The position numbers were made by a program, and so were the translations under genes. This document shows, one piece after another, positions 7,782 through 48,522 of a stretch of DNA of 64,000 nucleotides. The notes below the pieces were generated by a model. That model worked only from the letters and a program-made list of their open reading frames with translations, ran no database searches and was not told the origin of the DNA. The DNA is from a virus. Position 1 is the first letter of the stretch. Each line of letters opens with the position of its first letter. Location of the stretch: positions 48,159 to 112,158 of the IMG/VR virus record IMGVR_UViG_3300032236_001082, one strand, 5' to 3'.

Positions 7782-8615
7782 TTATATCATATTATTAATG
7801 TCTGGCTTGGTTAAAGTGGCCCAGACACCATTAAAATATCTTTCTTCTGGCTTAAATCCGCCAGTTATAGTGTGTACAAGTTTAAATAAATCGGGAATTA
7901 AGATGTCTCCCTGTTGCCATTTATGCACTATTCTAATGTCTTCATTGTTCTTCACTTGATCGTTTAAGAACATCATAATTCTATTAAATTCTTTTTCCAT
8001 TGGATCGGAAGGCTCAAAACCATTATATCTTGCTAAATATTTGTACTTAGAGGGATCAGCATTGAAATCAACGTGAGCCATCAATTCGCCCGTTCTATAA
8101 TGTTTAGAAGCGCAATTTGCCAATATGACATCATCAAAATAATAAAAATAGGTTTGGGAGTCTGTAATTATCTGTTGCTCTTGAGGATTTAAAAGATTCC
8201 ATAATTTGTGGGCATCTACAAAGTAAGTTTTACCGCTGTCTGGACTACAAGTAAATGTCTTCATGTTCCAAATAGCACCAGCAGTTCTATTCTTTCTATA
8301 GAAATGCTCTAGGTGCCAAGTGATTACAATATCGTCATTTCCCCACTTTTCGTTATAAGCGTGTTTGTGGTTTTCTGAATAAAAAGCATAAGCATTAAAT
8401 GCTTCAAGATTTTCTGGGTCATCAAAAGACTTAGTATTAGGAAACCAGCCAGCTTTATCTCCAAATATTTTAAGTATTTCTACTTGTTCTTCTTTTGAAA
8501 CATCCCCACCTCTAAAACAGATGACAGAATTTTCCTCAAATTTATCAAAATAATATTGAAGGTTATCTTTAATTCCTTCTATACCTGGATACTGTGTAAT
8601 ATATGGACTTAGCAT
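7782..8615 (-). CDS. TauD/TfdA-family 2OG-Fe(II) dioxygenase
   Basis: VICFRG, WHLE, GKTYFVD, HKWQQGDILI.D...VH, R. Confidence 0.8.
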   Translation of the reverse strand: MLSPYITQYPGIEGIKDNLQYYFDKFEENSVICFRGGDVSKEEQVEILKIFGDKAGWFPNTKSFDDPENLEAFNAYAFYSENHKHAYNEKWGNDDIVITWHLEHFYRKNRTAGAIWNMKTFTCSPDSGKTYFVDAHKLWNLLNPQEQQIITDSQTYFYYFDDVILANCASKHYRTGELMAHVDFNADPSKYKYLARYNGFEPSDPMEKEFNRIMMFLNDQVKNNEDIRIVHKWQQGDILIPDLFKLVHTITGGFKPEERYFNGVWATLTKPDINNMI

Positions 8616-9471: not shown

Positions 9472-9984
9472 TTATGCAGAAAGAATTTTACTTAAAGAAT
9501 TAACTGTTGCTGCAATTCTTCCGATATCACGCAACTGTTCTACTGTATATCCTTCTTGCTTGAGAGTCTCATAATGCGCCTTAACGCAGAAATGACACTT
9601 ACCAATAATTGATGAAGCTAATGAATATGCTTCAAACTTAGCTTTTGTTGTACCGCCGTGTGATGCAATAGCATTCATTCTTAACTGTGCTGGTAAACCA
9701 GACAAAGCAGAATCATCCGCCATTTCAACGTAAGGATACCACACATTGTTTTGAGCCATCAAGGCACCAGCAGTCAAAGCAGCATTTTTTTCTACTTCAT
9801 CCGTTGCGCCTGCAGCAATAAATGCCAAAAGCTTTCCATTTCCTGTTGCAAAAGCAGCAGCAATTGCTAAATAAGTAACTTGATCTGGGTCAATCGTAGA
9901 ACGATTGACCACAGCATCTAAGTTCAACTTAATATCTTTTGCATATTCTGGCAAAGAATCTTTTAGTTGATCAACCCAAGACAT
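9472..9984 (-). CDS. ahpD: alkyl hydroperoxide reductase AhpD
   Basis: LPEYAKDIKLNL, AALTAGALMAQNNVWY, SIIGKCHFCVKAH; start MSWVDQ at 9984 overlaps the ahpC stop. Confidence 0.93.
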   Translation of the reverse strand: MSWVDQLKDSLPEYAKDIKLNLDAVVNRSTIDPDQVTYLAIAAAFATGNGKLLAFIAAGATDEVEKNAALTAGALMAQNNVWYPYVEMADDSALSGLPAQLRMNAIASHGGTTKAKFEAYSLASSIIGKCHFCVKAHYETLKQEGYTVEQLRDIGRIAATVNSLSKILSA

Positions 9985-10520
9985 TAGAGAGTTGCCCCTC
10001 CAAGTGGACGATTGCAAGCACAAAGCTCACCAGTCTGAAGTGCATCCAAGACACGAAGTGCCTCATCCGCATTGCGACCAACATCTAGGTTGTTTACTGT
10101 AATATGCTGAATTACATTCTCTGGGTCAACAATAAATGTTGCACGGAGTGTAACTCCTTGTGGGGTAATAATGCCCAAGTCTGATGAGAGTTCACGTGCT
10201 GAGTCAGCAAATGCCCATGAGTTTGTCTTAGCAAGATCTTCATGGTTATTACGCCAAGCGACCTTACAGAACTCATTATCAACTGAACCTGTCATAAGTA
10301 CCGCATCACGGTCATTAAAATCATTAACTAACTTGTCGTATGCAACAATTTCTGTTGGACATACAAACGTAAAATCTTTTGGATAAAATGCAATAATCTT
10401 CCACTTTCCAGCGAAAGAATCTTGATTCAAGTTCTCAAAAGAAGAATCATCATACGCCAATGCTCCTGGCTTAACACCAACAACATTGAAGTTTCCTAAC
10501 TTATCTCCTACGGTCTTCAT
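9984..10520 (-). CDS. ahpC: peroxiredoxin AhpC
   Basis: FYPKDFTFVCPTEI, RATFIVDP, VGRN..E.LRVLDALQ, LCAC (actinobacterial type). Confidence 0.95.
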   Translation of the reverse strand: MKTVGDKLGNFNVVGVKPGALAYDDSSFENLNQDSFAGKWKIIAFYPKDFTFVCPTEIVAYDKLVNDFNDRDAVLMTGSVDNEFCKVAWRNNHEDLAKTNSWAFADSARELSSDLGIITPQGVTLRATFIVDPENVIQHITVNNLDVGRNADEALRVLDALQTGELCACNRPLGGATL

Positions 10521-10551: not shown

Positions 10552-10552
10552 G

Positions 10553-10626
10553 CGATCTCAACGGGACTTGAACCCGCAACCTCTACCGTGACAGGGTAGC
10601 GATCTAACCAATTGATCTATGAGATC
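10553..10626 (-). tRNA. tRNA-Asp(GUC)
   Basis: GATCTCA/TGAGATC, CTACC-CTGTCAC-GGTAG, G73. Confidence 0.95.
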
Positions 10627-10630
10627 CTAG

Positions 10631-10704
10631 TGGAACAGCTCGGACTTGAACCGAGGATTACCGAATTATGAGTTCGGGGCTTTAACCAACTAAGCTACTG
10701 TTCC
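10631..10704 (-). tRNA. tRNA with CAU anticodon (probably Ile2, lysidine type; elongator Met not excluded)
   Basis: GGAACAG/CTGTTCC paired 1-72 (not initiator), CCGAA-CTCATAA-TTCGG. Confidence 0.85.
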
Positions 10705-10706
10705 TT

Positions 10707-10783
10707 TGGTAGAATGTTTGCGAATTGAACGCAACTCTAGGGAGGATATAAGCCACCACCTGACCACCAGCCAGCCACATTCC
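10707..10783 (-). tRNA. atypical tRNA-Ile(UAU)
   Basis: GGAATGT/ACATTCT-A-CCA, 5-bp D stem with 5-nt loop, GGTGG-CTTATAT-CCTCC, TTGCG-TTCAATT-CGCAA. Confidence 0.7.
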
Positions 10784-10784
10784 G

Positions 10785-10857
10785 CTGGGGTGACAGGGAT
10801 CGAACCTGTGACACTTCGATTAACAGTCGAATGCTCTGCCTGCTGAGCTACACCCCA
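10785..10857 (-). tRNA. tRNA-Asn(GUU)
   Basis: TGGGGTG/CACCCCA, TTCGA-CTGTTAA-TCGAA, G73. Confidence 0.95.
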
Positions 10858-10862
10858 AAAGG

Positions 10863-10975
10863 GTACGGTAAGCAAATCCATCTGCACAGGCGTTGGGGTC
10901 TCTTACACCGCAAACGCTATAGCCGAGTATGTAATATGTAACTATAACATCCTAAGAAAGTGTTGCTTACCGTAC
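10863..10975 (-). ncRNA. candidate 113-nt structured RNA heading the tRNA operon
   Basis: 13-bp perfect terminal stem GTACGGTAAGCAA/TTGCTTACCGTAC starting 7 nt after TATAAT. Confidence 0.6.
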
Positions 10976-10981
10976 TATCAT

Positions 10982-10987
10982 ATTATA
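10982..10987 (-). promoter_or_regulatory. -10 element of tRNA operon promoter
   Basis: TATAAT in the intergenic region upstream of the RNA array. Confidence 0.7.
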
Positions 10988-10997
10988 CTATTAAGGG

Positions 10998-11585
10998 TTA
11001 TTTGATGTCAATAGTTTTGCCATTATAAGACGTGTCTGCATCTAATATTAAATTAGCTATATCTTCACGCATAGAATCTGTGATTGTGGCTGGGGATATT
11101 GAAAACATTGATTGATTATCTGATAATTGACTTGAAGCCGATCTAACGAATGCTTCTACTCCCGCCTTTACAGCAGAATAGTGTGCATCTTGAATAGGGA
11201 TATCAGCAGCAATTGATGATATAAATACTATTTGTCCATCAAACTCAAGCATATGTGTTAGATTCATTATAAGTGAAATATAATTAATTAAGAATGCATC
11301 ATAAAAACTTATCATTTCATCTTCAGCAACGTCTTTATAACTTCTACCCAAACCACTACCAGATAAAAATATTATCTTTGAGTAAAAATGTTTAGGAAGA
11401 AATGTAAAAAACATTTCTATAGAATGCTTATCATACAAATCAAGCTTAATCCAAGTGTAGTTATTGTATATCTTATCAACTTGTCTAAATGTCATTGCAG
11501 CGATTTCATAACCATTATTTTCTAATTTTGAAATGATAGGTTGAGCTAGGCTGGAAGTCCCGCCTATTATTAATACTTTTTTCAT
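10998..11585 (-). CDS. short-chain dehydrogenase/reductase (SDR)
   Basis: KVLIIGGTSSLA, IVFISS, catalytic YSAVK, ISPA. Confidence 0.85.
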   Translation of the reverse strand: MKKVLIIGGTSSLAQPIISKLENNGYEIAAMTFRQVDKIYNNYTWIKLDLYDKHSIEMFFTFLPKHFYSKIIFLSGSGLGRSYKDVAEDEMISFYDAFLINYISLIMNLTHMLEFDGQIVFISSIAADIPIQDAHYSAVKAGVEAFVRSASSQLSDNQSMFSISPATITDSMREDIANLILDADTSYNGKTIDIK

Positions 11586-17942: not shown

Positions 17943-18635
17943 TTACAATGTGCCCATAATATTTGGATCAGTAATGATTTCTTCTGTTAAGAATATCTCC
18001 CCGTCCTCTTCTTGAATGGATGGCTCATTAATATCTATGTCTTTTTTAGGGCTTAAAAAGCATATAAAATTCTTTCTTTCACCAGAAGTGACCTGTAATA
18101 CTTGATGAGGCAAAGTGTGGTCACCCTCAAATATAATTAAACTATTTTTTTTAGGTTTATATTTAATTTGCTGACGTGGAAAATTAAGTTCTCCGCCTTC
18201 GTAGTTATCCGTAAAGTATAATAAAGCTGATCTACAAACCCTATCGTACTTTTTAGCTTTTAATTCATTTTTTTGAGATATATAATGATTGTCCATGTGT
18301 AAATCGCCAACGCCATCTTTATACATGGCTGCATACATGGCATGTTTTATTCCAAATGGTTCATTATATATATCTGACACTACCTCGGATATTGAAGTGC
18401 ATATGCTGGTAAATAAATCTAAACCCATATTATATTCGGGGTTGTCTCCATATTCTTCAAAAGAATTTGTAGAGTTTATATAACGTTGAGAGGGTCCGTA
18501 TTTTATATTTGGATAGCGATCAAATTCTTTCAAATTGCTATCGAAGCATTTGGAAAGAAAATCAGACGTGGCATCTGATATAAAATCTTCTACAACGTAA
18601 AGTTTATTAAATTCTGTTTTTATTTCTTTTTTCAT
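17943..18635 (-). CDS. 2OG-Fe(II) oxygenase (P4Hc-like)
   Basis: HMD, LYFTDNYEGGELNF, HQV..VTSGERK. Confidence 0.88.
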   Translation of the reverse strand: MKKEIKTEFNKLYVVEDFISDATSDFLSKCFDSNLKEFDRYPNIKYGPSQRYINSTNSFEEYGDNPEYNMGLDLFTSICTSISEVVSDIYNEPFGIKHAMYAAMYKDGVGDLHMDNHYISQKNELKAKKYDRVCRSALLYFTDNYEGGELNFPRQQIKYKPKKNSLIIFEGDHTLPHQVLQVTSGERKNFICFLSPKKDIDINEPSIQEEDGEIFLTEEIITDPNIMGTL

Positions 18636-20311: not shown

Positions 20312-22156
20312 CTACAATATTGTAAAATTGTCTACGAAGCCAGTTTCTGAATCAGGCTCTTCGTCTTCTATACCAAGATAATCTTTTAGACTGGCTGGCA
20401 TATACTTAATATTAGGAGCTTTAATGGTGTTATCCTGCTTTGTTTCTGATGGGCTCCCGACCAAATCTTCATCAAATGCGTCATAGGAGTAGACTTGAAG
20501 TTCTCCATCTCCCTTTGGTGTTAATGATATCGCATTAAAAATTGCACCGCAAGTTGCATCCGCAAGGTCTTTTGAACCTTTGCGGGGGTGATCAACCTTA
20601 TCTTTTTTAACAATTCTTAGCTCAAGCAACTCATCAATAATTAAAGGTAACCTTGGGCCCGTCAATCTTTCTTCCATTACGCAAAGTAGCATATCTTCGT
20701 AATGCTTTTTGGCTACAGATAGAACTTCGCAATTCATTCCATATGACTTTAATTGTTCCATCATATCAAATGAATTCCAACGGTCAAATGTAACCCTACG
20801 TATATTAAAGCCTCTTTGTTTTAAACTAATTATGTAATTCTTTACATCTGTAAAATCTACTGACTTTTCTTTTGTAGGAGTCCAATATCTAATTGCATCA
20901 ACCACAACATATGGCTGAGCATCGGTATACGCACCAGATAACTTCATCGTTACCCATTTATCTACGTGTGCCATAGATACAGCACAGTGGTCATGCTTTT
21001 GAGCTAAGTCAACGTGTATATAATATGATTTTTCTGGATCTGGTTGAAACCATTCCTTGAAAGCATTGTTTTCATCAAGAGCTATATTTAAATTACTAAA
21101 TGCAGTCTCAACCTTTTCACGGGAATGGAACAGAGCGTCAATAGCTTCAGGAGGCATACATGCAAAACGAGATAGGGCATCTATGGGATCTGAATAAAAG
21201 TTCATGGCTAAATCTTCAATTTTAATTGTGGGATTGATTTCCCATGTAGGACGCTTTAATGCAAACACTCTAGGTACATTATAGTTAATAATGTGGTCTT
21301 CTTCCCACTCAATTGAAAATTCATTACCTTCCGTCCCGTCTGGCAAATCTTCGTCAACCTTAAATGTGTGTGTGCGAATAACTACTTCTTTATCAGCAAC
21401 TACTTCATTATATCTTTGCTGAATGTAATCGTTCTTAAATCGTGGAAAAGAAAGCAAAATAACTTTGCCGAACTGTGGGAATCGTGAATCTACAGAACCT
21501 CTAAACATCTTATAAATAGCAGCAGCAGTTTTTGCTTGCTCGTTACCACTTGTAGAGTCTAGATCAAAACCAGAAATTTCATCAAGCACTGCAAACAGAA
21601 GGTTATAACCTTCCCAAGATTCTCTTTGTGAGTGACCAGAGTGAACTGTGATCGCCTTATCAAAAGCAATGCTACCCATCTTTGCTTCATACTTACCATC
21701 AAACCAACGACAACGTGTGATTCTATTTTTAAATCCTTTAAAGAAAACTTGTTGAGCCTGAATTGCGTTAACCGCAACGTTGATGATATCAATAGAATCG
21801 CCTGGTGGCTTGCCGTAGTATCTAGCTGGATCCTTGAGGCAAAGCAATAGATAAACTACATATGAACAGGCAATAGTAGAAGTATAGTCTTTTCCTGAGC
21901 CCTTACCCAATTGGAATATAACTTCATTACAGGTTTGACCCCAGCGTTTTGCGCCTTCAATCTCACCGTATAATTTAATTAATGTTTCTTTTTTATAAAT
22001 TTGAGTTGAGGCTTTAATCATTTGATATTGATATTCTGACAAAGGAGGCAAAGCAAGATAATCTTTTGAAGTAACAAACTCCTCAATCTCTACTGGAGTT
22101 TCTTCAAAAGCATCTTCTTCCAATGCCCCCAAAAAATCGTCAAAATCTAAATTCAA
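20312..22156 (-). CDS. terL: terminase large subunit
   Basis: GKGSGKD Walker A, AVLDE Walker B, HVDLA, TFDRW, DHP..GSKDLADA nuclease motifs. Confidence 0.92.
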   Translation of the reverse strand: MNLDFDDFLGALEEDAFEETPVEIEEFVTSKDYLALPPLSEYQYQMIKASTQIYKKETLIKLYGEIEGAKRWGQTCNEVIFQLGKGSGKDYTSTIACSYVVYLLLCLKDPARYYGKPPGDSIDIINVAVNAIQAQQVFFKGFKNRITRCRWFDGKYEAKMGSIAFDKAITVHSGHSQRESWEGYNLLFAVLDEISGFDLDSTSGNEQAKTAAAIYKMFRGSVDSRFPQFGKVILLSFPRFKNDYIQQRYNEVVADKEVVIRTHTFKVDEDLPDGTEGNEFSIEWEEDHIINYNVPRVFALKRPTWEINPTIKIEDLAMNFYSDPIDALSRFACMPPEAIDALFHSREKVETAFSNLNIALDENNAFKEWFQPDPEKSYYIHVDLAQKHDHCAVSMAHVDKWVTMKLSGAYTDAQPYVVVDAIRYWTPTKEKSVDFTDVKNYIISLKQRGFNIRRVTFDRWNSFDMMEQLKSYGMNCEVLSVAKKHYEDMLLCVMEERLTGPRLPLIIDELLELRIVKKDKVDHPRKGSKDLADATCGAIFNAISLTPKGDGELQVYSYDAFDEDLVGSPSETKQDNTIKAPNIKYMPASLKDYLGIEDEEPDSETGFVDNFTIL

Positions 22157-47900: not shown

Positions 47901-48522
47901 TTGGTGCTGGAAGTAATGACTGGTAGGTATTTGATATGGCTGCCTTAACATACCCCGCTGTTTGAAGTGCCCCGTCATAAGTTGCAACCTCAACATAGTT
48001 AAATGAAACTGAATTTGCAAACCCACTATCCGTGCTTTTTATAGTTACCGTTTGATTTACGGATCCAAAAGATAAAAGTGATTTATCATATGAAGGACTA
48101 ATTACTGTAAAGGTTGTCCCACCGTCAAGGCTAACTCCGACATTAAAATTAAGAAAGAATTGATTTTGAGGATCCGACATGTCGAAATCAAAAGTAAGAA
48201 CAAGATCGCTGCCAACATACGATGCAGTCAAGTTTGCAACTTGAAGTGGTGCTGTACCTGGAAGTGGTTCTGGGTTTGTTCCTCCTTGGCTAGGAGTTGA
48301 ATCTGTATTAGGGCTACTAAATGAAGCTGCTTGGATTCCCACAAGCATTGCACTGATGTTTTTATTTAAACCAATTGGAGATATATAACCATTCCATCTT
48401 GATTGTTTAAATGGAGCCGTAATAGAATTAGCGGTTGGATCTAAATTTATGTCAATAGGAATCGGCTGTCTTCTAGCAGAAGACGAGTCCGATATGTAAG
48501 TAGGATTTAAATTAATTTGCAT
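44992..48522 (-). CDS. minor tail protein
   Basis: Beta-rich; G.I.A..A.I.G.I.A..G.I..W.I repeats typical of siphovirus tail tip/fibre proteins. Confidence 0.8.
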   Translation of the reverse strand: MQINLNPTYISDSSSARRQPIPIDINLDPTANSITAPFKQSRWNGYISPIGLNKNISAMLVGIQAASFSSPNTDSTPSQGGTNPEPLPGTAPLQVANLTASYVGSDLVLTFDFDMSDPQNQFFLNFNVGVSLDGGTTFTVISPSYDKSLLSFGSVNQTVTIKSTDSGFANSVSFNYVEVATYDGALQTAGYVKAAISNTYQSLLPAPIITEADATSSYIITTTNIDAAKATPNGNFLSEIIQEFVYPTTGLTSAQVDTAAAASSVGWVQVGEPKTISPASVFAADGAHRYVRAWFMETTGAKSAYSNYVEATPTALLPANNLPPANATNVSASFSNNGAGDDVVVTYTLPSIVDSDLNKPVTVKVKLVPTAANNLSGFFYHTIASKTETSFTIPKNLIFAQFGQYYKSYSGTFVLQSQYGTESSTVQNITTFSRTSSIGSVVPVATITNVIDGYNVQFALGTTGASYGEVYQFFIDPTGSFATVDMPDYMDATFASGGASGQKTFVVNSISMENGGFTLPTGKTVNTYVGYPITGTGIPTNTWVTSITGSGPYTITVNNNLTQQAAGNYHMQSLVYSGTGPASVFDNLYATGYLILRYYDIYDSPSQNSIVYQVTPTNPSISVIQNAVQIGGGGSIFVGNSATTGSRIVLGPSGNKGPDGTSAYSGIFAFDYGSTASTPASTAIITNPGASSYTFETTNAKIADWSINSTQIQNTLGSASNYVGMSATGTYSFWAGSATSGGDSQAKFTVTPGGAVVARNIQIIGSGVGSDTLISAGTGFYVYGDGSITASKATITGSITVNQASNFNSSVTIGSSGYLIVNGPGSAYVKMGGAGIIASPNGSTVTTQISSSPIGEDGVTLATNSAYLGSLSGASGAWIVKAGKIYSGQLELSSANGTITAYPTDYNATQNNYGVRIYGGSSTSNGYAISVGALDTIPKFFVDHLGNVTASSATIKGKVTATEGYIGSDTTGWTITSSYLRSKGSNSYVSLDSAGAQLQTYSAGSSALGSLVTFSASNSGGVINQTSASAAAIDTTTSFGNGQITSNGYTVLSTAKAFQVFGSNQGRGAVPLISIDPDGSSTIWNHADNNGVITQQVVGQSFAAISTGVIYLDSSDVIIGNSPNGYIYLNGNMRVRNATDIVGTIGFVRNIYVNSGSGPAVGSTGTGFVGDLYVTY

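Follow-up and report, generated by a model that had tools for sequence, protein, structure and literature searches.

The small stable RNAs rnaC and rnaD of phage T4 (species 1 and 2) are the closest described counterparts of the RNA reported here, being 119–139 nt long, lying inside the phage tRNA cluster only 1–6 nt from a neighbouring tRNA, and being released by tRNA processing. To our knowledge, no function has been assigned to the small stable RNAs of phage tRNA clusters since these two species were sequenced in the 1970s. CopA/CopT of plasmid R1, RNA I/RNA II of ColE1 and Sok/hok are loop-presenting antisense RNAs. Pairing of the 5' and 3' ends in a terminal stem is shared with 6S RNA and YrlA, which are likewise stable non-coding RNAs, and Y RNAs also occur near actinophage tRNA arrays. 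Two further phage and prophage non-coding RNAs, GOLLD and ROOL, cluster with tRNA islands (PMC12286853). A catalogue of viral structured RNAs drawn from IMG/VR lists about 8,500 anonymous candidates (PMC10690425), and it may contain an anonymous entry for the family described below.

The window analysed here is a stretch of 64,000 nucleotides (positions 48,159 to 112,158) from IMG/VR record IMGVR_UViG_3300032236_001082, which represents a complete virus of 112,158 bp with terminal repeats. The minus strand of the window carries a small RNA gene at 10863..10975, specifying 113 nt (first base G10975, last base C10863), which is recognized by the covariance model of the family, R1, at 55.6 bits (E = 1e-11). 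Upstream lies a sigma-70-type promoter (10982..11011, minus strand) composed of TTGACA, an 18-nt spacer and TATAAT, with 12 of 12 consensus bases. The first RNA base, G10975, sits 7 nt past the -10 hexamer, as the earlier note had held, and would coincide with +1, and the same promoter arrangement precedes the RNA in all nine members of the window's clade. A tRNA array co-transcribed with the RNA follows at 10552..10857 (minus strand), in which ARAGORN and Rfam identified tRNA-Asn(GUU), tRNA-Ile(UAU), tRNA-Met(CAU) and tRNA-Asp(GUC). The gap between the closing stem and tRNA-Asn (10784..10857, minus strand) is 5 nt, and the perfect 13-bp stem that the two RNA ends had been said to form at this distance from the tRNA was confirmed on the window sequence. 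The element is present in a single copy in the whole 112,158-bp record; a second copy per locus was considered and rejected, as the single weak R1 match (E = 0.08) falls in coding sequence. The large terminase gene, which serves as the synteny marker of the RNA-carrying phage clade, is located at 20312..22156 (minus strand) and was assigned through PHROG terminase matches for an orthologue.

The RNA belongs to a family of at least 56 distinct members with lengths of 77–136 nt. A scan of viral contigs with the two stem arms yielded 8 loci and a scan with an 18-position core pattern yielded 75 loci, while running the covariance model on related contigs sampled through their terminase contributed 17 further distinct variants that were beyond the reach of the pattern. 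The collection began with a core-containing pattern and R1 was trained on the resulting sequences, so that core-less members could be missed. The core pattern was also applied to 185,579 prokaryote species (one genome each), where it gave 40 matches, and the only true member among these resides on a 23.8-kb contig that also bears a phage terminase. A search for related loci by way of the upstream short-chain dehydrogenase returned no relatives, and when the element or a relative was compared by blastn with 50,697 GenBank phage records, matches were to tRNAs only, or there were none.

The family was found only in uncultured lake phages whose terminases are related, where it always runs in the direction of the tRNA array; to the extent that run records give a source, the samples behind the loci are freshwater. 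IMG/VR holds 572 relatives of this terminase; among the RNA loci the large terminases are 64–82% identical, and the clade terminase is 63–66% identical to that of Streptomyces phages of the Stanwilliamsviridae. From the terminase to the RNA, which follows downstream and on the same strand every time, the distance is 16 nt to 7.5 kb, and the RNA was detected in 15 of the 23 related loci that have at least 8 kb downstream of the terminase. Its start falls 0–2 nt after an upstream tRNA in 33 of the 56 distinct members and 6–8 nt after a -10 hexamer in 20, and a tRNA follows within 3–11 nt in 34. These arrangements, in which a promoter or an upstream tRNA abuts the start of the RNA, bear out the earlier proposal of a stable phage non-coding RNA matured together with tRNAs. 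When no tRNA follows, lineages differ in the gene that comes next, examples being a 2OG-Fe(II) oxygenase, an HNH endonuclease and an M23 peptidase, which argues for a free-standing RNA gene occupying a tRNA slot and against a leader of one particular gene.

The closing stem P1 is formed in the window by 10963..10975 (5' strand) and 10863..10875 (3' strand), both on the minus strand, as a perfect helix of 13 bp whose first base is G. All 56 members share a perfect P1 of 11–14 bp and all 56 begin with G. Homologues and covariation had been named as a check on the earlier proposal and both were found: across 52 distinct sequences, P1 covaries at 12 of 12 pairs with both sides changing and 99.8% of cells paired, and P3 covaries at 6 of 6 pairs, whereas in slid controls of the covariation test the paired share drops to 20–50%. 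Counts of G.U versus A.C combinations were 13:1 in P1 and 38:2 in P3, and since G.U far exceeds A.C in both helices, the RNA is read from the tRNA strand. The element is a real, discrete structured RNA on that strand, and the family, with its two covarying helices, is supported well enough to be entered as new in RNA family databases.

The interior of the window RNA contains two hairpins. P2 (10925..10952, minus strand) is an imperfect hairpin in which GGAUGU pairs locally with ACAUCC-like bases, and its 5' strand and loop, AUAGUUAC, are the bases complementary to helix 69 that are described below. This assignment is based on RNAalifold predictions for subgroups and on pair counts, and AUAGUUAC forms the P2 loop in every subgroup fold. 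Throughout the family the 5' strand and loop of P2 are almost invariant and its 3' strand is not conserved, the loop motif being AUAGUUAC in 54 of 56 members and GUAGUUAC in the other two. P3 (10890..10917, minus strand), supported by covariation of its family equivalent, has a class-specific extension in the window, GCGUU/AACGC plus GGU/ACC, and carries the conserved loop GUAAGAG. The same GUAAGAG is found as L13 of class-A RNase P, and a second short identity, AUAGGGCA, corresponds to the RNase P bulge between P5 and P7. As a single sequence the RNA has a minimum free energy of -36.3 kcal/mol (z = -3.4), and none of 200 dinucleotide shuffles folds as well. The inner pairings listed in the earlier note fared unevenly: GGT/ACC is the tip of the family-wide P3, and AGGATGTT/AACGCCT and ATAGTT/GGCTAT appear only in the minimum-energy fold of the lone sequence. 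Similarly, the complementarity between TCTTA and TAAGA, which was suggested to form a pseudoknot or an alternative fold, is present in many members as UCUUA against the UAAGA of the P3 loop; it shows no covariation anywhere and is not universal. The interior is made of covarying hairpins and conserved junctions, and the picture of a rod with a central bubble was not supported.

Known RNA classes did not account for the element. Rfam 15 has no family that matches at its gathering score, at E ≤ 10 on 2.8 kb, or with the element alone (119 nt), and a distant family member likewise had no Rfam 15 match; this agrees with the earlier reading of no tRNA, SRP or ribozyme consensus, and the comparison with Rfam models that was called for there revealed no already described family. 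A tRNA or tRNA-like gene was rejected because ARAGORN and RF00005 detect the eight flanking tRNAs and not the element. A bacterial Y RNA (YrlA) was rejected on the lack of an Rfam match and on TROVE (PF05731), which the complete genome of 112 kb does not contain. A Ro-like protein is encoded in the tRNA region of the related Streptomyces phage Kenrey; Kenrey has no R1 match, and tblastn with its Ro-like protein found nothing in the available RNA loci. With filters off, the only R1 matches in the tRNA region of T4 were trivial hairpins, and neither rnaC nor rnaD was matched, which excludes a homologue of these RNAs. RNase P RNA of class A or B gave no match, and both this candidate and a relative of the RNase P S-domain, or double T-loop binder of the tRNA elbow, come down to two short motif identities in the wrong order. 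The U-run after P1 (CCUUUU) occurs only in the window's clade and most members are without it; as P1 is perfect and the downstream genes differ, an intrinsic terminator or a riboswitch leader was rejected. Inspection of the alignment showed no boxes of C/D or H/ACA guide RNAs, and the two antisense blocks lie on one continuous strand and do not flank an internal loop. A CsrA or Shine-Dalgarno mimic (AGGAUG, GGAA) was discarded because GGA becomes GUA, GAA, GGG or GGC in natural variants, and an anticodon-stem-loop mimic because the P2 loop has 6–9 nt or more and not a fixed 7.

The invariant part of the family is complementary to 23S rRNA. Taking the rrlH gene of E. coli MG1655 as the 23S reference, positions 1910–1929 have their reverse complement in the core CUUAGGAUGUUAUAGUUAC, the only departures being at 1921, where the pair is G.U, and at G1922, which is bulged. 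Of 20 positions, 19 are complementary to this segment, which comprises the loop and 3' strand of helix 69 and the linker. Together with junction J1/2, the core makes up antisense block A (RNA nt 14–38; 10938..10962, minus strand), which forms 21 Watson-Crick and 2 G.U pairs over 25 positions with 23S 1910–1935, leaving one target base bulged. We ranked 547 windows of 16S and 23S rRNA as duplex sites for the 21–25-nt cores of 22 diverse members, and helix 69 was the best site for 21 of them, with duplex energies between core and helix 69 of -20 to -28 kcal/mol. Likewise, local alignment to whole rRNA placed the 5' part on 1910–1929/31 in 14 of 14 cases, with z of about 4.5. A count of 11-mer matches to rRNA over 1 Mb of loci had too high a background to be usable.

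The pattern of change within the family follows the same target. Divergent members change the middle of the core and keep two blocks fixed, CUUAG/CUUGG and RUAGUUAC (AUAGUUAC/GUAGUUAC), of which CUUAG and AUAGUUAC pair with 23S 1925–1929 and 1910–1917, respectively. Both A-to-G variants retain a wobble, CUUGG opposite U1926 and GUAGUUAC opposite U1917, and variants with a changed middle have ACC ahead of the first block, which carries the pairing out to 1931. P1, P3 and the 3' strand of P2 vary freely in these members. Complementarity of the fixed blocks to 23S would explain why the 5' strand and loop of P2 are frozen while its 3' strand drifts. The target region 1897–1978 is identical in E. 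coli and in the genomes of a Bacillota, a Bacteroidota and a cyanobacterium. The family thus has what is expected of an antisense RNA, namely extended complementarity beyond chance and a seed that lies in a loop and is more conserved than its scaffold. RNAcofold, which folds nested structures only, had to break P1 to form intermolecular pairs and reported gains of only -1.7 to -8.6 kcal/mol; these values are uninformative, since nested folding cannot keep P1 at the junction.

Further complementarity was seen in the 3' domain. Antisense block B (RNA nt 83–94; 10882..10893, minus strand) has 11 Watson-Crick pairs in two runs, with 23S 1962–1967 and 1972–1976. A possible and weak block C (RNA nt 67–70 and 74–78; 10898..10909, minus strand), read by hand from the collinear alignment and overlapping the tip of P3, faces 23S 1992–2000. 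The GGAU before the 3' strand of P1 (10876..10879, minus strand) offers three Watson-Crick pairs with 23S 1940–1942, too short to count alone; its column is conserved in the family, with GGAA in most members. For the 34 nt before the 3' strand of P1, the region around 23S 1945–2000 ranked first or second among the 547 windows in all ten subgroup representatives, and shuffled 3' domains reached rank 3 or better in 2 of 80 trials (2.5%). Read across P1, from the 3' domain through the junction to the core, the interior is collinear with the antisense of 23S from 2008 to 1910 (z of 5–9 against shuffles). This alignment skips the complement of helix 71 (1945–1961) and has a gap opposite 1979–1990, where alone the target differs among the four genomes compared. 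Blocks B to D rest on the duplex-energy ranking and on alignment to a restricted window, and they are less secure than block A because the 3' part alone, aligned to whole rRNA, was not significant.

The same seed recurs in other viruses. A perfect 18-nt complement of helix 69 was found in 16 viral contigs, of which one is a real rRNA gene and 15 are not rDNA. These 15 represent at least eight unrelated contexts, each with only 18–20 nt antisense to 23S, and five contexts reach exactly the 20-mer 1910–1929. Several of the loci have a second block against 23S 1927–1937 or 1969–1975, and in several the seed is followed by a hairpin and T-run, that is a terminator, oriented as the antisense-reading strand. 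Four are clearly intergenic, one lies within the tRNA array of another phage, and none of these loci has an Rfam match. The occurrence of one 18–20-nt seed on unrelated scaffolds suggests that the 23S sequence itself is what is being read.

Based on these comparisons, we consider that the element probably acts as a stable trans-acting antisense RNA pairing with host 23S rRNA, a reading to which we give somewhat better than an even chance. The strong early-type promoter would make the RNA the first product of the tRNA operon, while in relatives it would be made between tRNAs. Its ends would be set by the transcription start or by the 3' end of an upstream tRNA, and by an RNase P cut at the next tRNA, and the perfect P1 of 11–14 bp would shield both of them and let a stable species accumulate. 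P1 and P3 would serve as scaffold, while complements of 23S domain IV (1910–1935, 1940–42, 1962–76 and probably 1992–2000) would be displayed in the loop and 5' strand of P2 and in the junctions. The P2 loop AUAGUUAC could kiss the exposed helix 69 loop through up to 8 bp of loop-loop pairing, upon which the weak P2 would open and pairing would spread along its 5' strand to the 3' strand of helix 69, the linker and the flanking blocks. Full pairing of block A would need unfolding or nascent rRNA, because block A is mostly paired in P2 and the target is partly buried in the mature 50S subunit. On nascent or unfolded 23S the blocks of the 3' domain could pair too, P1 and 23S helix 71 remaining as folded branches.

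Helix 69 is the central intersubunit bridge of the ribosome. RNA binding there should matter both for this reason and because a synthetic PNA directed against helix 69 halts both translation and growth in E. coli, according to a passage of PMC12828698 that cites Kulik 2017. The most likely consequence would be that helices 69–71, which contribute intersubunit bridges, are kept from folding or engaging, and that 50S subunits, whether newly made or free, then end up blocked, marked or remodelled at a time when the phage provides tRNAs of its own. More broadly, and with somewhat less than even confidence, we suggest that tailed phages of many lineages have repeatedly evolved RNAs that pair with helices 69–71, and that the present family is a clamp processed like a tRNA and circularly permuted, which would engage about 45 nt of domain IV in a four-way junction and control 50S maturation or subunit joining. 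An RNA of this kind would be a natural anti-ribosomal RNA, and no such class is known from bacteria or their viruses.

The same complementarity would equally suit a helper that pairs with 23S, either as a snoRNA-like chaperone or tether speeding or redirecting 50S assembly, or by keeping subunits for phage translation. A purely inhibitory role is not obviously useful, since a phage that brings many tRNAs depends on functional ribosomes; the RNA is expressed along with these translation-boosting tRNAs, and leaving helix 71 and P1 free to fold suits transient chaperoning as much as blocking. We nevertheless regard a helper as rather improbable, given that antisense oligomers against helix 69 inhibit translation, as stated in the relevant passage of PMC12828698. 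Sequence says nothing on the sign of the effect: the phage may use binding to halt the making of new ribosomes, to hold 50S subunits or to help them, and we place a blocking mode ahead of a helping one. It also counts against a helper that we know of no trans-acting rRNA chaperone RNA in bacteria. A larger, still minor, share of probability goes to a stable RNA serving as scaffold or decoy, with its conserved loop and junctions as the binding site for a phage or host protein, in the manner of a Y RNA or as a sponge for a factor directed at tRNAs or ribosomes, the antisense likeness being then a relic of inverted rDNA or convergence. The fold is compact, with several helices and conserved junctions, the P3 loop matches a tertiary-contact motif in L13 of class-A RNase P, the Ro-like protein of Kenrey lies in a tRNA region, and GOLLD and ROOL provide a precedent for phage RNAs near tRNA islands (PMC12286853). 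However, neither the genome nor the available loci contain a Ro/TROVE gene, and no RNA-binding gene co-occurs consistently across the RNA loci. An rDNA relic would not remain invariant as P1, P3 and the terminase diverge, and the presence of the seed on the unrelated scaffolds of other phages speaks for the 23S sequence itself as what is recognised.

The remaining explanations are all assigned low probability. It would be improbable for the element to be a cis-acting leader of the tRNA operon, such as a precursor stabiliser, processing platform, attenuator or terminator (the stem followed by CCUUUU). Such a leader fits the window's clade, in which the transcript starts with the RNA and P1 is followed by a short U-run; elsewhere the RNA lies between tRNAs (33 of 56) or precedes unrelated genes (2OG oxygenase, HNH endonuclease, M23 peptidase), mostly with no U-run, a perfect P1 of 12–14 bp gives a switch no room, and the invariant loop is left unexplained. 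A product of the opposite strand, which would be a hairpin resembling helix 69 and a decoy for factors that bind it, appears very improbable. The complement of P2 does have the helix 69 loop and its closing pair, and the plus strand as a lone sequence folds as well as the minus strand; yet promoters, tRNA arrays and terminase are all on the minus-strand side at every locus, the excess of G.U over A.C points the same way, and terminators follow the antisense-reading strand in the independent seed cases. We attach the least credence of all to the RNA-polymerase decoy of 6S/Ms1 type that the earlier note had raised. A terminal stem is present and a large inner loop can be drawn into the lone-sequence fold, but no Rfam model matches at E ≤ 10, the length is 77–136 nt and not about 180, the interior consists of covarying hairpins and has no bubble, and the minimal members of 77 nt leave no room for an open-promoter mimic. 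As judged from sequence comparison, the conserved bases are explained by 23S complementarity instead of polymerase mimicry.

Pairing with 23S at helix 69, if our favoured reading is right, would give one tRNA-cluster RNA a concrete function, and we think the chances are slightly in favour of this assignment. It would then be the first natural trans-acting RNA of the bacterial world that targets rRNA; the literature that we searched describes no natural phage or bacterial RNA targeting rRNA this way. It would also add a layer to the viral handling of host translation, beside phage tRNAs and phage-encoded ribosomal proteins. Although the phages are uncultured, the idea is testable in ordinary laboratory bacteria, since the target does not differ between phyla.

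The T4 RNAs with which we began differ from the family in having no homology to it, in the tRNA-like T arm of rnaC, and in showing only background complementarity of 7–9 nt to rRNA. GOLLD and ROOL are RNAs of 580 to more than 800 nt that form RNA-only cages and are in Rfam, whereas our family has no match to them. Compared with 6S RNA and YrlA, the family has no Rfam match, no bubble resembling an open promoter, no tRNA-like T or D arm, and no Ro/TROVE partner in the genome. Base-pairing with functional centres of rRNA is shared with snoRNAs, archaeal guide RNAs and the anti-helix-69 PNA. Whereas guide RNAs carry C/D or H/ACA boxes, none were seen in the family by inspection; the partner proteins of such RNAs, as far as we know, do not exist in bacteria. 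The PNA, as described in the cited part of PMC12828698 (Kulik 2017), shows that helix 69 can be reached.

Closer in design are CopA/CopT, RNA I/RNA II and Sok/hok, which share with the family a seed in a hairpin loop, a likely course from kissing to duplex spread, four-way-junction-like intermediates, and scaffold helices that are kept. Their targets are an mRNA or a primer of the same replicon, whereas here the target would be host 23S rRNA, and in the family the antisense is split, circularly permuted around the closing stem and placed in a tRNA array. The other viral anti-helix-69 RNAs have the same target boundaries (1910–1929) and second block (1927–1937), and likewise occur once per genome in uncultured aquatic phages. 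Those RNAs are short, with a seed in a 5' hairpin or a 3'-UTR and an intrinsic terminator, whereas the present family has no terminator and combines a long P1 and extra blocks (1962–2000) with maturation like that of a tRNA.

The tRNA gene with anticodon UAU, a tRNA-Ile, lies in the window at 10707-10783 (-) next to a CAU tRNA at 10630-10704 (-), and in many of the related loci a UAU tRNA-Ile is found beside the structured RNA. Auxiliary metabolic genes (7782-8615, 9472-10520 and 10998-11585, all on the minus strand) alternate with the tRNA sub-clusters of the window, where the genes among the tRNAs encode a dioxygenase of the TauD family, a protein resembling CMD/AhpD, an AhpC/TSA peroxiredoxin and a short-chain dehydrogenase. 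Genes for Hsp20 and a ferritin/Dps-like protein occur in related loci as well.

HNH homing endonucleases are frequent in phage tRNA regions, and several lineages (loci L034, L073, L053 and L071) encode one directly 3' of the RNA, as at L034:2663-3172. A 2OG-Fe(II) oxygenase (PF13640) is the first gene downstream of the RNA in four lineages. The PF13640 oxygenases that follow the RNA (L179:13451-14032, L154:12129-12710, L041:5160-5834 and L006:1636-2220) are approximately 195-225 aa in size and represent a prolyl-hydroxylase-like family, and the window genome encodes a 2OG-Fe(II) oxygenase 7 kb upstream of the RNA (17943-18635, -). One 2OG oxygenase gave a faint match, below the cut-off, to the N-terminal domain of the rRNA methyltransferase RlmM (E = 0.008); that these oxygenases are tied to ribosome modification is a guess.

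Streptomyces phage Kenrey, a cultured relative by terminase, encodes a Ro-like RNA-binding protein (69062-70678) amid scattered tRNA genes; a search of this phage found no copy of the RNA family. The RNA and a phage terminase of 82% identity occur together on the 23.8-kb contig JBBALJ010000049.1 of a Bacteroidia MAG. This contig appears to be phage sequence that binning placed in a bacterial MAG, and not a sign of a Bacteroidia host.

Among the unrelated viral loci with perfect seeds complementary to helix 69 of 23S rRNA, L206, L210, L213 and L217 also contain UCGCUA(C), which can pair with 23S 1931-1937 as its complement and is placed either in the loop of the terminator hairpin or in a downstream stretch. 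At one of them (L206:130-310), a complement of 23S 1969-1975 is joined directly to the anti-helix-69 seed.

Compared with class A RNase P RNA (comparison locus L199:717-1093), the GUAAGAG loop of the covarying hairpin P3 (window 10890-10917, -) is identical to loop L13, and the sequence of the conserved bulge between helices P5 and P7, AUAGGGCA, is found in many members of the RNA family. The two shared motifs stand in opposite order in RNase P RNA and in the RNA family, and therefore these short sequence identities probably reflect motif reuse or chance.
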